The notes beneath the pieces were generated by a model. That model saw nothing but the letters and a program-made list of their open reading frames with translations, had not been told where the DNA came from and did no database searches. A stretch of 64,000 nt of DNA from Escherichia phage slur02. The position numbers and the translations under genes are program-made. Shown here in pieces: positions 4,663 through 45,087 of this stretch; position 1 is the first letter of the stretch; every line of letters starts with the position of its first letter. Location of the stretch: the sequence record NC_028927.1. One strand, given 5' to 3'.

Positions 4663-5622
4663 TCACTTCCACTGCATTTCACATGCTAATTGAATGAAAA
4701 GATAAGCTAAATGTAATTCAGTGTTAGCTGCAATACCATGATACTGATTATTTTCACCAACAATTTCGTACATACGAATAATACTTTGTGGAGTTACACG
4801 TGAATAGATTTCTTCGGCAAGTTTACCCACGAACCACGAATAATCAGCTGCATATTTTGGTGCTAAAGCTCTGAGTTGTTTAACATCTTTATTTTTGAGA
4901 GACTCAAGAACATCATCAATAGCACCACGATCGTTAGTAACCAGTGATAAAATACCAGCATCCAAAACACCTTTAGATGAATAACTATCGAGCTCGCCAA
5001 TAGTTTTACGAAAATCAGGAAAATTCTTTTTAACCAAAGCTGCTACAACTTTCATATCAGCTATAGCAATTCCTTCATGCTTGCAGATTTCAGTCAATCG
5101 ACGAATCATCTGCTTCATCATTTCAATTTTATCTTCATCGGTCGGTTGACCGAATGTAATAACTCGGCAGCGTGACTGAAGCGGTTTAATAATACCATCA
5201 ATATTGTTAGCAGTAATAATAATACTACAGTTTGAACTATAAGCTTCCATAAAGGAACGAAGATGTCGCTGAGACTCTGCTAACCCTGAGCGGTCAAATT
5301 CATCAATAACGATTACTTTTTGACGACCATCAAATGAAGCTGCACTGGCAAAATTAGTCAAAGGACCACGAACGAAATCAATTTTACAATCTGACCCATT
5401 CACAAACATCATATCAGCATTTACATCATGACACAATGCTTTCGCTACAGTTGTTTTACCTGTTCCTGGAGAAGGAGAATGAAGAATAATATGTGGAATC
5501 TTACCTTTACTTGTAATAGATTTAAAGGTTTCTTTATCAAAGGCGGGAAGAATACATTCATCGATAGTAGATGGACGATATTTCTGTTCAAGAATGTGTT
5601 CTTTTTCATTTACGGTAATCAT
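4663..5622 (-). CDS. 44: clamp-loader ATPase gp44
   Basis: 319 aa from MITVNEKEH with GAGGA RBS; Walker A SPGTGKTT; T4 synteny. Confidence 0.93.
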
Positions 5623-42696: not shown

Positions 42697-42734
42697 AGAT
42701 ACCAAAAAGCCCCAACCTTTCGGTCGGGGCTAAG
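42697..42734. repeat. direct repeat copy 1 (34 bp, terminator-containing)
   Basis: ACCAAAAAGCCCCAACCTTTCGGTCGGGGCTAAG identical at 42701-42734 and 43260-43293. Confidence 0.75.
42704..42731 (-). terminator. rho-independent terminator (copy 1 of repeat), downstream of the internal-protein-like gene
   Basis: minus strand GCCCCGACC-GAAA-GGUUGGGGC then UUUUU; identical to copy at 43263-43290. Confidence 0.7.
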
Positions 42735-42738
42735 AATG

Positions 42739-43212
42739 TTATTTGATTTGTTTAGCAGACCAAATGCGATCTTTAATAATTTTTTGGATGTCTTCAACAT
42801 ACTCTAGGTCATGAGCATGTGGATTATCTTTGAAACTATAAGCACGAGCTAGTTTTTGGCCTTCAGTTTTGATTACTAAAAGCTCTTTAAGGATAGCTTC
42901 ATATTTGGAGATAATTCCTTTAACAATATTTTTTTCTTGTGCAGCTTTAGGATCTGCTTTAGGAGCAGGTTTACCCGAAGCCTTTGCAAAAGCAGCGCCA
43001 GTAGCAACTAAACTTTTCCAGGCCATACTAACTGCATTTCCCGTAAATCCTTCCGCTTTCATGTCGCGTGCGAACTGGAATCGCGATTCATCAGAAGCAT
43101 CTTTATAGGAATATTTACCCGCTGTAATGGCTGCTTTTGCGACAGCTTGAATTTCGGTGCTAGATGCTTCATTTAACACCGCTTCATTTAAAAATTGAGT
43201 ATATGATTTCAT
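42739..43212 (-). CDS. internal-protein-like late protein with CTS-like N-terminus
   Basis: 157 aa; N-terminus MKSYTQFLNEAV resembles the capsid-targeting sequence; TATAAATA late promoter upstream; flanked by identical terminators. Confidence 0.55.
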   Translation of the reverse strand: MKSYTQFLNEAVLNEASSTEIQAVAKAAITAGKYSYKDASDESRFQFARDMKAEGFTGNAVSMAWKSLVATGAAFAKASGKPAPKADPKAAQEKNIVKGIISKYEAILKELLVIKTEGQKLARAYSFKDNPHAHDLEYVEDIQKIIKDRIWSAKQIK

Positions 43213-43252
43213 CTTATTTCCTGTTTTAATTCGTGGATTTAATATACTACTA

Positions 43253-43260
43253 TATTTATA
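43253..43260 (-). promoter_or_regulatory. late promoter for the internal-protein-like gene
   Basis: TATAAATA on minus strand about 40 bp upstream of ATG 43212. Confidence 0.6.
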
Positions 43261-43293
43261 CCAAAAAGCCCCAACCTTTCGGTCGGGGCTAAG
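43258..43293. repeat. direct repeat copy 2 (34 bp, terminator-containing)
   Basis: identical to copy 1; the two copies bracket the late promoter and internal-protein-like gene. Confidence 0.75.
43263..43290 (-). terminator. rho-independent terminator (copy 2 of repeat), ending the tRNA/stable-RNA transcription unit
   Basis: same 9-bp stem, GAAA loop and U5 tail; 34/34 nt identical to copy 1. Confidence 0.7.
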
Positions 43294-43599
43294 CCTTGCG
43301 GCAACCTTGTCGGGGTTCCACCTGCTAAGGCAAGTGTTTGTACGAAACGCCGGGATTCGAACCCGGTTATTAAGCAGTTGACGCTACTCAATATTTTTAA
43401 AAGGCCATATCTCGACCATATCCGAACGTTCCGTCAAAAACGCTACTCGGCTTACGGCAAAGATATTTCCTCGAATCGATAATTCGGTGCGCCGTTTCTG
43501 CTGTGATGTAAGAGGGCATCAATAAACGCAAAGATTATTAACGCAATTCCTTACTCAGGGAACATCAGTCCGACGACTTACCGGTAGCGACCCGGTTTC
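43292..43599 (-). ncRNA. non-coding region with a tRNA-like element (about 43342-43433); probable counterpart of the T4 stable RNAs (species 1/2)
   Basis: no ORF; acceptor-like stem CGGAACG/CGTTTCG plus canonical T-arm CCGGG-TTCGAAT-CCCGG, but no canonical anticodon arm; ends at a strong terminator. Confidence 0.4.
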
Positions 43600-43950
43600 T
43601 TAATATTCTTTTAAAGCATCAATCTGTTTACGGCGTTCACGCCATAAATCAATTGCTTCATACGCGGATTCAACATTTCGAATTGGACGGCATTTATATA
43701 AAGATTTGTGATTTTGATATTGCGTAGATAACGGAATTTTATCTAAAAGGTCTTTACGTTCAAAGTATTCGTAACCATCTAAGCCAAATGAACGATTTTT
43801 GAGAAATTGCCAATGACCAAATTCGTTTTGAATATAAATATAATCCGCATGTTGATAAAGTAAATTAATTTCACGAAATGAGATATGTTTTTCATATTCA
43901 TTGAAGTAAAATGTTAAATCATGAACTACTAAATAAACATTACCTTTCAT
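43600..43950 (-). CDS. hypothetical protein inside the tRNA/stable-RNA region
   Basis: 116 aa; GAGGAA RBS; between tRNA-Arg and the stable-RNA region, where T4 carries segB. Confidence 0.45.
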   Translation of the reverse strand: MKGNVYLVVHDLTFYFNEYEKHISFREINLLYQHADYIYIQNEFGHWQFLKNRSFGLDGYEYFERKDLLDKIPLSTQYQNHKSLYKCRPIRNVESAYEAIDLWRERRKQIDALKEY

Positions 43951-43968: not shown

Positions 43969-44044
43969 TGGTCGAGGCAGTAGGGATCGAACCTACGACC
44001 TAGGACTTAGAAGGTCCTTGCTCTTCCTTCTGAGCTATGCCCCG
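43969..44044 (-). tRNA. tRNA-Arg (anticodon UCU), CCA encoded
   Basis: manual cloverleaf: acceptor CGGGGCA/TGCCTCG, anticodon loop CTTCTAA, T-arm GTAGG-TTCGATC-CCTAC. Confidence 0.85.
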
Positions 44045-44048
44045 TAAT

Positions 44049-44124
44049 TGGGGTGACCGATGGGAGTCGAACCCATGACTACGAGAATCACAATCTCGAG
44101 TTCTACCAACTGAACTACGGCCAC
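44049..44124 (-). tRNA. tRNA-His (anticodon GUG), CCA encoded, no G-1 encoded
   Basis: manual cloverleaf: acceptor GTGGCCG/CGGTCAC, discriminator C, anticodon loop TTGTGAT; resembles E. coli tRNA-His as recalled. Confidence 0.8.
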
Positions 44125-44238
44125 ATTAATACCTACTCCAACAATCAAGATGTCTTCACACGAAATTAAGAGAAGAGTGATCAGTTCAACCCCTATAATC
44201 GCGTCAAGTAGATATTAATGTGACAGTTGTCACAAATT

Positions 44239-44313
44239 TGGCGGACGTGATAGGATTCGAACCTATAACCAATCGCTTAACAGGCGATCGCTCTACCATT
44301 GAGCTACACATCC
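44239..44313 (-). tRNA. tRNA-Asn (anticodon GUU), CCA encoded
   Basis: manual cloverleaf: acceptor GGATGTG/CACGTCC, anticodon stem ATCGC/GCGAT, loop CTGTTAA. Confidence 0.8.
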
Positions 44314-44317
44314 AAAT

Positions 44318-44404
44318 TGGTGGGGAGTGGTGGAGTCGAACCACCCGAGTCGCAATGACAATGAATTTACAGTCCACACCGCTACCTCTACGGGATAACT
44401 CCCC
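44318..44404 (-). tRNA. tRNA-Tyr (anticodon GUA), type II, CCA encoded
   Basis: acceptor GGGGAGT/ACTCCCC, anticodon loop CTGTAAA, long variable arm, T-arm GGTGG-TTCGACT-CCACC; anticodon stem has two G-U pairs. Confidence 0.7.
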
Positions 44405-44417
44405 TAATTCATAATTT

Positions 44418-44491
44418 GGTGGCCCTGGGTGGAATTGAACCACCATCTGGCGATTATGAGTCGCTTGCTTGAACCTTCCAGCTACAGGGCC
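44418..44491 (-). tRNA. tRNA with CAU anticodon (T4 tRNA-Ile-like, or Met), CCA encoded
   Basis: acceptor GGCCCTG/CAGGGCC, anticodon loop CTCATAA; occupies the Ile position of the T4 cluster order. Confidence 0.7.
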
Positions 44492-44492
44492 T

Positions 44493-44568
44493 TGGTGCTG
44501 ATTGACGGAATCGAACCGCCGACGTCCTCATTACAAGTGAGTTGCTCTACCTACTGAGCTAAATCAGC
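44493..44568 (-). tRNA. tRNA-Thr (anticodon UGU), CCA encoded
   Basis: acceptor GCTGATT/AATCAGC, anticodon loop CTTGTAA. Confidence 0.85.
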
Positions 44569-44574
44569 AAAAAC

Positions 44575-44664
44575 TGGCGGAGGCGATAGGATTTGAACCT
44601 ATGAGTCGCCGGAGCGACTGCCGGTTTTCAAGACCGGTGCATTAAACCACTCTGCCACGCCTCC
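44575..44664 (-). tRNA. tRNA-Ser (anticodon UGA), type II, CCA encoded
   Basis: acceptor GGAGGCG/CGCCTCC, anticodon stem CCGGT/ACCGG, loop CTTGAAA, long variable arm. Confidence 0.85.
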
Positions 44665-44666
44665 AG

Positions 44667-44740
44667 TCTCCATACAAGGATTTGAACCTTGGACCTCCTG
44701 ATCCCAAATCAGGCGCTCTACCAAACTGAGCTACACGGAG
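44667..44740 (-). tRNA. tRNA-Pro (anticodon UGG), CCA not encoded
   Basis: acceptor CTCCGTG/TATGGAG, anticodon loop TTTGGGA; 2 nt from tRNA-Ser. Confidence 0.8.
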
Positions 44741-44750
44741 TAAATTAAAT

Positions 44751-44824
<74 letters not shown>

Positions 44825-44829
44825 AAATT

Positions 44830-44916
44830 TGGTGCGAGAAGTGGGACTCGAACCCACAAGGAAATCATTCCGCAGCATTTTAAGTGCTGTGCCTTTACCA
44901 ATTTGACCATTCTCGC
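44830..44916 (-). tRNA. tRNA-Leu (anticodon UAA), type II, CCA encoded
   Basis: acceptor GCGAGAA/TTCTCGC, anticodon stem CAGCA/TGCTG, loop CTTAAAA, long variable arm. Confidence 0.85.
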
Positions 44917-44917
44917 G

Positions 44918-44990
44918 CTGGGAATAAAGGACTCGAACCTTTGCATCCTGGAATCAAAATCCAGTGCCTTACCAACTTGGCTAATTCCCA
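44918..44990 (-). tRNA. tRNA-Gln (anticodon UUG), CCA not encoded
   Basis: acceptor TGGGAAT/ATTCCCA, anticodon loop TTTTGAT; 1 nt from tRNA-Leu. Confidence 0.8.
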
Positions 44991-45059: not shown

Positions 45060-45085
45060 ATAATAACAAATAATTCTTAAAGCAT
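45060..45085 (-). promoter_or_regulatory. MotA-dependent middle promoter for the tRNA cluster (putative)
   Basis: MotA box ATGCTTTA (45078-45084), 12 bp spacer, -10 TATTAT (45060-45065); 70 bp upstream of tRNA-Gln. Confidence 0.5.
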
Positions 45086-45087
45086 AT

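Follow-up and report, generated by a model that had tools for sequence, protein, structure and literature searches.

What does Escherichia phage slur02 encode in the ~300 bp that separate the last open reading frame (ORF) of its tRNA region from the downstream terminator? We analysed a 64,000-nt stretch of this genome (NC_028927.1; hereafter the window, whose positions serve as coordinates throughout), which is DNA of a Tequatrovirus, that is, a T4-like phage, and in which every element described below lies on the minus strand. A first-pass annotation had placed a single tRNA-like element of ~92 nt in this gap and had offered two identities for it, the stable species 1 and 2 RNAs of phage T4 or a degenerate tRNA. 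A blastn search with positions 43230-43610(-) against 50,697 phage records retrieved 804 matching records, nearly all of them from Tequatrovirus; identity over the region is 100% for Escherichia phage slur04 and 98-99% for T4. Where the matched records are carefully annotated, they carry 'species 2 RNA' and 'species 1 RNA' (T4, X03016) or rnaD and rnaC (RB27 and RB3), and the segment 43603..43339(-) aligns end to end with the RNAs annotated in these three phages, from which the element coordinates were transferred (Table 1). The order is also that of T4, namely rnaD, then rnaC, then the same terminator, at the distal end of the tRNA cluster and on the tRNA strand. Judged by this alignment, 43603..43339(-) is the rnaD (species 2 RNA) and then the rnaC (species 1 RNA) of this phage, and the first of the two identities was the right one.

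The tRNA cluster itself consists of 11 consecutive genes at 43969-44990 (ARAGORN, confirmed by Rfam), and the two RNAs are the distal part of this operon, closed by the operon's intrinsic terminator. In T4, the tRNA cluster and the species I and II RNAs belong to one primary transcript of ~1.75 kb, whose end lies past the species I gene (PMC2330249); a Northern blot has confirmed T4 RNAC, and the two RNAs are classed as late (PMC9697503). The feature is genuine and already known, both RNAs being textbook T4 genes familiar since the 1970s, and what we add is a corrected and statistically supported structure of rnaC, the complementarity of two of its loops and the modular distribution of both RNAs.

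Homologues of rnaC were gathered from Tequatrovirus, Karamvirus (VIPECLOM01, KaAlpha, ZX13, KKP_3262 and UFV01), Kanagawavirus (IME523), IMG/VR and metagenomes, and were used to build a covariance model (CM), R1; the alignment then made comprises 43 hits, 24 of them distinct (A5). The window copy scores 158.7 bits against R1 (E 1e-35) over model positions 1-141 of 141, compared with 159.7 bits for the T4 copy, and folds with a minimum free energy of -50.1 kcal/mol (z -4.4). Among the 24 distinct homologues, the 46 pairs of the model are 98.8% paired, as against 40-48% in controls with slid partners; compensatory changes occur at 25 of these pairs, and none of 500 shuffles reaches any of these measures. 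RNAalifold on plain MAFFT alignments yields the identical structure, and a seven-sequence alignment made with MAFFT only has 18 compensatory pairs. The limits of the RNA are 43478..43342 according to X03016, in which positions 4741-4877 (T4 species 1 RNA) align to this segment, and extend to 43339 according to RB3. Relative to T4 species 1 RNA ('band C'), the slur02 homologue is near-identical in sequence, length, position and internal stem-loop, and differs by a few substitutions, such as, in one pair of the 10-bp hairpin, G for A, none of which is functionally distinguishing.

By this comparative model, rnaC is a tRNA mimic of 137-140 nt in which an acceptor-like stem, a canonical T-arm stacked on it and two oversized arms meet in a four-way junction. 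In the acceptor-like stem, pair 3 is A-U in 12 and G-C in 11 of 23 sequences, and positions 4 and 5 carry conserved tandem U.U mismatches. Helices 1 and 6, the terminal stem and the T-stem, are 100% paired with one compensatory pair each; helix 2 is an invariant 3-bp AGG/CCU; 16 of the 23 pairs of helices 3 and 4 are compensatory, as are 7 of the 10 pairs of the 10-bp hairpin. The T-arm had already been read correctly in the first-pass annotation, and 9 of 23 sequences have U-A or A-U within it in place of G-C, a compensatory change. The acceptor stem had not: the pairing drawn earlier, CGGAACG (43433-43427) with CGUUUCG (43349-43343), shows no compensatory change and has an A.C at one pair in 9 of 23 sequences, and although it can be drawn in the window sequence, it is equalled by all 500 shuffles across the 24 distinct homologues. 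The 3' strand pairs instead with CGAUUCG at 43478-43472, so that the element measures 137-140 nt, of which the ~92 nt first delimited are the 3' two-thirds. The discriminator position is occupied by U43342 and is followed by an ACA (43341-43339) that is conserved in all homologues; CCA is not encoded.

These ends bear on how the RNA may be made. The 5' end of T4 species 1 RNA (X03016, experimentally derived) corresponds to 43478, the first paired base, and its 3' end to the discriminator position, which is the pattern expected from tRNA-type processing; with a U as the -1 nucleotide, the T4 5' end is consistent with cleavage by RNase P before C43478. We propose that the host tRNA-processing machinery would excise rnaD and rnaC from the polycistronic tRNA transcript. 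RNase P would cut immediately before the acceptor-like stem, at C43478, a 3' cleavage or trimming step would act at or just past U43342, and the acceptor/T minihelix of rnaC would provide both the processing signals and metabolic stability. Species 1 RNA was reportedly sequenced directly in the 1970s, at ~140 nt, and its precursor p2Sp1 is said to have served in studies of RNase P and of 'RNase F' or self-cleavage, with a cut near nt 139-140 that would fit the UACA. RNase BN has reportedly also been linked to the processing of species 1 RNA. Other non-decoding RNAs use an acceptor/T minihelix as a handle for the tRNA-processing enzymes of the host, among them the tRNA-like domain of tmRNA, the bacterial Y-RNA-like YrlA RNAs and the TMERs of gammaherpesviruses. 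In contrast to these, rnaC has no tag ORF and a different arm layout, it shows no sequence or CM relationship to them, and the Rfam tmRNA and YrlA families gave no match.

Neither rnaC nor rnaD is a tRNA. ARAGORN made no tRNA or tmRNA call on rnaC, in agreement with the earlier remark that a canonical anticodon arm is missing, and a scan of 4227 Rfam families gave no match at the gathering threshold and none to RF00005 even at E<=10. The best match within the tRNA clan was tRNA-Sec, with 16.6 bits where the gathering score is 47; this and the other sub-threshold matches at E<=10 (isrK, rli49 and others) are no better than chance. Rfam 15 contains no family for rnaD or rnaC. The resemblance to a canonical tRNA (RF00005) lies in a 7-bp terminal stem abutting a 5-bp T-stem with the loop UUCGAAU, a single unpaired nucleotide after the stem, the four-way junction and a tRNA-like placement in the gene cluster. 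The differences are the lack of a D-arm and of a 7-nt anticodon loop, arms of ~27 bp and 10 bp, the tandem U.U in the acceptor stem and an encoded UACA rather than NCCA.

Could rnaC nevertheless be a degenerate tRNA pseudogene, a decaying and in itself functionless remnant whose transcription merely reflects its place in the operon? Its tRNA-like acceptor stem and T-arm, its location in a tRNA cluster and the weak tRNA-Sec match point that way, as do annotators' calls of a 96-nt 'tRNA-Phe' or a 'tRNA-OTHER' at this place. However, the compensatory changes extend to arms that have no tRNA counterpart, the loops are invariant, rnaC is conserved across three genera with an identity above that of the neighbouring rnaD, and in T4 it builds up as a stable RNA (PMC9697503). 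Given such strong constraint on both structure and sequence, a decaying pseudogene, the second identity originally offered, is very improbable.

The apical loops of the two oversized arms, UUGACG and CGUCAA, do not vary among the 24 distinct sequences, although compensatory changes have remade the stems that bear them in KaAlpha, L140 and UFV01. The two hexaloops are exact reverse complements, with a complementarity that ends at the loop boundaries after 6 bases; the probability of this arising by chance for such loop sizes is ~6.5e-4. This suggests a 6-bp kissing contact between the hexaloops, either intramolecular or intermolecular. In the mechanism that we favour, the conserved loops would be the working surface of the RNA, most likely locked by this loop-loop contact within or between molecules.

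Invariant loops could also serve as seeds, and rnaC, rnaD or both might then be trans-acting regulators that base-pair in kissing fashion with host or phage mRNAs or tRNAs. Such a role would suit the invariant single-stranded loops UUGACG, CGUCAA and GUCGCUA (the last in rnaD), all on covarying stems, as well as the late accumulation in T4 (PMC9697503). On the other hand, the mutual complementarity of the rnaC loops speaks for a contact within the molecule or in a dimer, and 6 nt are too unspecific, the two hexamers occurring 16 and 24 times within the window; furthermore, no functional trans-acting small RNA has been characterized in T4 (PMC3014915). We regard base-pairing regulation as quite unlikely.

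The function of the species 1 and 2 RNAs is still listed as unknown (PMC3014915; PMC9697503; PMC12685909). As a tentative proposal, in which we place little confidence, rnaC may, rather than carry an amino acid, serve through its tRNA shape as a ligand or decoy of some tRNA-binding host factor whose importance is limited to certain hosts. A single-nucleotide polymorphism (SNP) in rnaD arose convergently in all lines of the T4-like phage BW1 adapting to ECOR34, a semi-permissive host (PMC12685909), and is a hint of host-dependent function. A more specific version would make rnaC a tRNA mimic locked by the 6-bp kissing contact within or between molecules and perhaps acting with rnaD. It would be a decoy or inhibitor of a tRNA-directed host factor, for instance an anticodon nuclease (GUN-anticodon type) or another tRNA-sensing defence, and hence a determinant of host range. 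The CGUCAA loop, at the anticodon position, contains GUC, the Asp anticodon, and UUGACG contains GAC, an Asp codon; the tRNA set of slur02 includes tRNA-Asn(GUU), tRNA-Tyr(GUA) and tRNA-His(GUG) and no tRNA-Asp (ARAGORN). It is from the invariant complementary loops, this tRNA set and the convergent rnaD SNP (PMC12685909) that the self-locked version derives, and we consider it distinctly improbable.

The distribution of the two RNAs shows that they are separable modules. Karamvirus and Kanagawavirus carry rnaC without rnaD, between tRNA genes and 6 nt past the CCA of tRNA-Trp or tRNA-Met, and a 6-nt spacer of the AAUUAU type precedes rnaC also in Karamvirus (after tRNA-Trp) and Kanagawavirus. 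Conversely, Dhakavirus (ESCO10, JS10) has rnaD and the trailer that leads to the terminator, without rnaC. No homologues outside T4-group phages were found in IMG/VR, the JGI metagenomes or 185,579 prokaryotic genomes. A 15-base rnaC pattern gave mostly chance matches in IMG/VR, and a loop/loop pattern search detected no new rnaC homologues. A T-arm/loop pattern run against viral, metagenome and genome collections gave, beyond T4-group phages, one match in a Solibacteraceae metagenome-assembled genome, which was rejected by the CM.

This distribution also bears on the idea that rnaD, rnaC and the trailer act in cis only, as a structured 3' end or punctuation that shields the operon and ORF mRNA from 3' exonucleases, with the excised RNAs as by-products. 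In Tequatrovirus both RNAs are indeed 3'-terminal in the operon, shortly ahead of its terminator, the rnaD hairpin follows directly on the ORF stop codon, and T4 mutants lacking the tRNA region are reportedly viable on laboratory hosts. Yet rnaC is internal to the tRNA clusters of Karamvirus and Kanagawavirus rather than 3'-terminal, Dhakavirus retains rnaD and the trailer without rnaC, and an exonuclease block needs no invariant loop sequences. A purely cis-acting role is therefore unlikely.

The upstream half of the region, which had been overlooked, belongs to rnaD. The rnaD region is present in 733 phage records; the slur02 copy is ~99% identical to T4 over 116 nt, most relatives are 80-90% identical, and rnaD is more variable than rnaC. 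Its consensus fold has 5 compensatory pairs (23 distinct sequences, A6), including an A-U/G-C compensation at the closing pair of the small hairpin, whose heptaloop is invariant, and a U-A/A-U compensation. The long irregular hairpin is invariant at its base, and its apical third has been swapped by lineage for unrelated sequence that still forms a hairpin, with the architecture being retained in 4 tip variants. T4 species 2 RNA ('band D') ends in ...CACCA and the slur02 homologue in ...CACCG. The T4 ending ...ACCA had hinted at a second tRNA-like RNA. We rejected this: the CCA is unconserved, relatives having CCG or CAG, and a T-arm is missing, which means that rnaD does not mimic a tRNA. In T4, RB27 and RB3, rnaD begins 1-4 nt after tRNA-Arg (one base in T4). 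In slur02, as in many relatives, rnaD does not directly follow tRNA-Arg and a 116-aa ORF intervenes; the identity of the gene is unaffected by this and its 5' end is uncertain.

The 116-aa ORF and its ribosome-binding site stand as first described. Homology to rnaD sets in next to its stop codon or overlaps it. The protein matches phrog_3355 (E 6.7e-52), a family annotated without function, and a Pfam search with it gave nothing above threshold. Members of the family, with identities of 29-100%, occur in 424 phage records, and in the records examined the ORF lies between tRNA-Arg and rnaD; T4, RB27 and RB3 are without it. A distant relative, with ~44% identity over 50 residues, is found inside the tRNA cluster of Karamvirus VIPECLOM01 (L004 3337-3711), and the tie of phrog_3355 ORFs to tRNA clusters in two genera may not be accidental. 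Searches of libraries of 5.8 billion and 1.8 billion proteins retrieved just close relatives, and a low-confidence AlphaFold (AF2) model, with a predicted local distance difference test (pLDDT) score of 63, had no Foldseek match in the PDB at E<=0.001. No repeat flanking the ORF was found. With good confidence, as part of the explanation as a whole, we take it to be an independent, widespread T4-group gene that shares the transcript.

Downstream of this ORF, the ~308 bp at 43292-43599 hold no consistent ORF, just TTG- or GTG-initiated ORFs of 34-44 aa whose presence and starts differ among relatives. The region had been described as ~300 bp of non-coding sequence; that holds, except that it contains two RNAs and not one. 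Many GenBank genomes have hypothetical-protein coding sequences (CDSs) or aberrant tRNAs laid over rnaD and rnaC, or leave the region unannotated. In favour of the small ORFs being real genes, 'hypothetical protein' CDSs cover the region in AR1, OE5505, fHoEco02 and others, and the window has ORFs of 44 aa and 34 aa there. However, the TTG or GTG starts fall at shifting positions, and in relatives the ORFs are missing or of other lengths. The lengths of rnaD, 113-120 nt and not in multiples of 3, argue against coding; substitutions track base-pairing and not codons, and T4 has RNAs annotated at the corresponding positions. A protein-coding role for the region is scarcely credible.

Taken as a whole, the explanation that we consider best comprises the identity of the two RNAs, their anatomy, processing by host tRNA enzymes, the loops as a surface, a guess at a decoy role and the independence of the 116-aa ORF, and is in our judgement very probably correct. 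Several points weigh against it. The accumulation of discrete RNAs has been demonstrated for T4 alone, and the identity in slur02 is based on homology. We infer RNase P cleavage, 3' trimming and CCA addition from the shape of the RNA and from the T4 work of the 1970s-80s. The inserted ORF eliminates the tRNA-Arg/rnaD junction that sets the 5' end of T4 rnaD, and since its stop codon abuts the first conserved rnaD bases, the 5' end must be generated differently here than in T4. In Kanagawavirus-type rnaC (L006, L042/L143/L145/L158), the T-loop is UGCAUGC in place of UUCGAAU, with the T-stem and the rest kept, so a canonical T-loop is not universally needed. As both hexaloops are invariant, covariation cannot test the kissing contact, and the very unequal arm lengths (~27 bp and 10 bp) make an intramolecular kissing geometry uncertain. 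The decoy role in particular is a doubtful guess.

Finding rnaD and rnaC here is routine. For the question of what the species 1 and 2 RNAs do, now some 50 years old, the comparative model supplies targets for mutation, namely the true acceptor stem, five covarying helices and two complementary invariant hexaloops, and a further handle is offered by rnaC without rnaD in the tRNA clusters of Karamvirus and Kanagawavirus and by rnaD without rnaC in Dhakavirus. Hundreds of GenBank phage records in which the region is blank or carries spurious CDSs or odd tRNAs could be put right with a curated covariance model.

Table 1. Features of the rnaD/rnaC region of slur02 in window coordinates, followed by annotations laid over the homologous region in other records.
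Feature	Position	Strand	Remarks
tRNA-Arg(UCU)	43969..44044	-	last gene of the 11-tRNA cluster; CCA encoded; ARAGORN and Rfam tRNA (66.1 bits)
116-aa ORF, phrog_3355	43600..43950	-	Shine-Dalgarno GAGG 43959-43956, 5 nt before ATG; stop 43602-43600
rnaD homologue	43485..43603	-	alignment to T4, RB27 and RB3; 5' end placed by alignment alone
rnaD 5-bp hairpin ACCGG-GUCGCUA-CCGGU	43596-43580	-	heptaloop GUCGCUA invariant
Spacer AAUUAU between rnaD and rnaC	43479..43484	-	6 nt; nucleotide at -1 of rnaC is U
rnaC homologue	43339..43478	-	predicted 137-nt tRNA-like cloverleaf, then conserved ACA; CM R1 and T4/RB3 annotation
rnaC acceptor-like stem, 5' strand CGAUUCG	43472..43478 (nt 1-7)	-	pairs with 43349-43343
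rnaC long interrupted arm (helices 2-4)	43402..43471	-	D-arm position; ~27 bp; apical UUGACG 43437-43432
rnaC 10-bp hairpin	43368..43393	-	anticodon/variable-arm position; loop CGUCAA 43383-43378; stem-loop annotated in X03016
rnaC T-arm CCGGG-UUCGAAU-CCCGG	43350..43366	-	abuts 3' strand of terminal stem, as in tRNA
rnaC acceptor-like stem, 3' strand CGUUUCG	43343..43349 (nt 130-136)	-	then U43342, then ACA 43341-43339
3' trailer, rnaC to terminator	43291..43338	-	near-invariant in Tequatrovirus; also in Dhakavirus ESCO10, without rnaC
Intrinsic terminator of the tRNA/rnaD/rnaC unit	43262..43290	-	10-bp stem (43290-43267), GAAA loop, U-run
157-aa ORF, phrog_2280, function unknown	42739..43212	-	own T4 late-promoter consensus TATAAATA at 43260..43253(-)
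Misannotation over rnaD/rnaC, AR1			ar1_138/139
Misannotation over rnaD/rnaC, L160	577-705		OE5505_00140
Misannotation over rnaD/rnaC, L163	564-874		HE2_135/134
Odd tRNA call on rnaC, L129	379-474		KKP_3262 'tRNA-Phe', 96 nt
Odd tRNA call on rnaC, NC_054920			'tRNA-OTHER'

The terminator that closes the unit had been recognized from the start, is picked up by a simple scan as well and is the 'pot. terminator' of X03016. The trailer and terminator fold together with z = -4.0, and the trailer could be a separate 3'-end fragment RNA that is freed when rnaC is excised. Two identical 36-nt copies of the terminator, at 42699-42734 and 43258-43293, bracket the 157-aa ORF, and the 559-bp unit with this ORF is missing from T4 and RB3, a related ORF being present in RB27. 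It looks like a cassette gained or lost through recombination between the terminator copies. The 'hyperplastic' ORF cassettes of T4-type phages (PeSL-type shuffling) are comparable in two respects: the 157-aa ORF sits between terminator copies with its own promoter, and genomes that are otherwise collinear differ in whether they have the 116-aa ORF. They differ in that the promoter beside the repeat is here of the late type and not early.

At the other end of the operon, a sequence resembling a MotA box, ATGCTTTAA, is found at 45078-45086(-), upstream of the first tRNA gene (tRNA-Gln, 44990), in the place where X03016 has the T4 middle promoter PM2. Within the cluster, slur02 has tRNA-His and a 113-nt spacer (44125-44238, between tRNA-Asn and tRNA-His) where RB27 and RB3 pass straight from tRNA-Asn to tRNA-Arg. 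This spacer holds a perfect palindrome, TGTGACA-GT-TGTCACA (44219-44234), and, on the transcribed strand, one more UUGACG.

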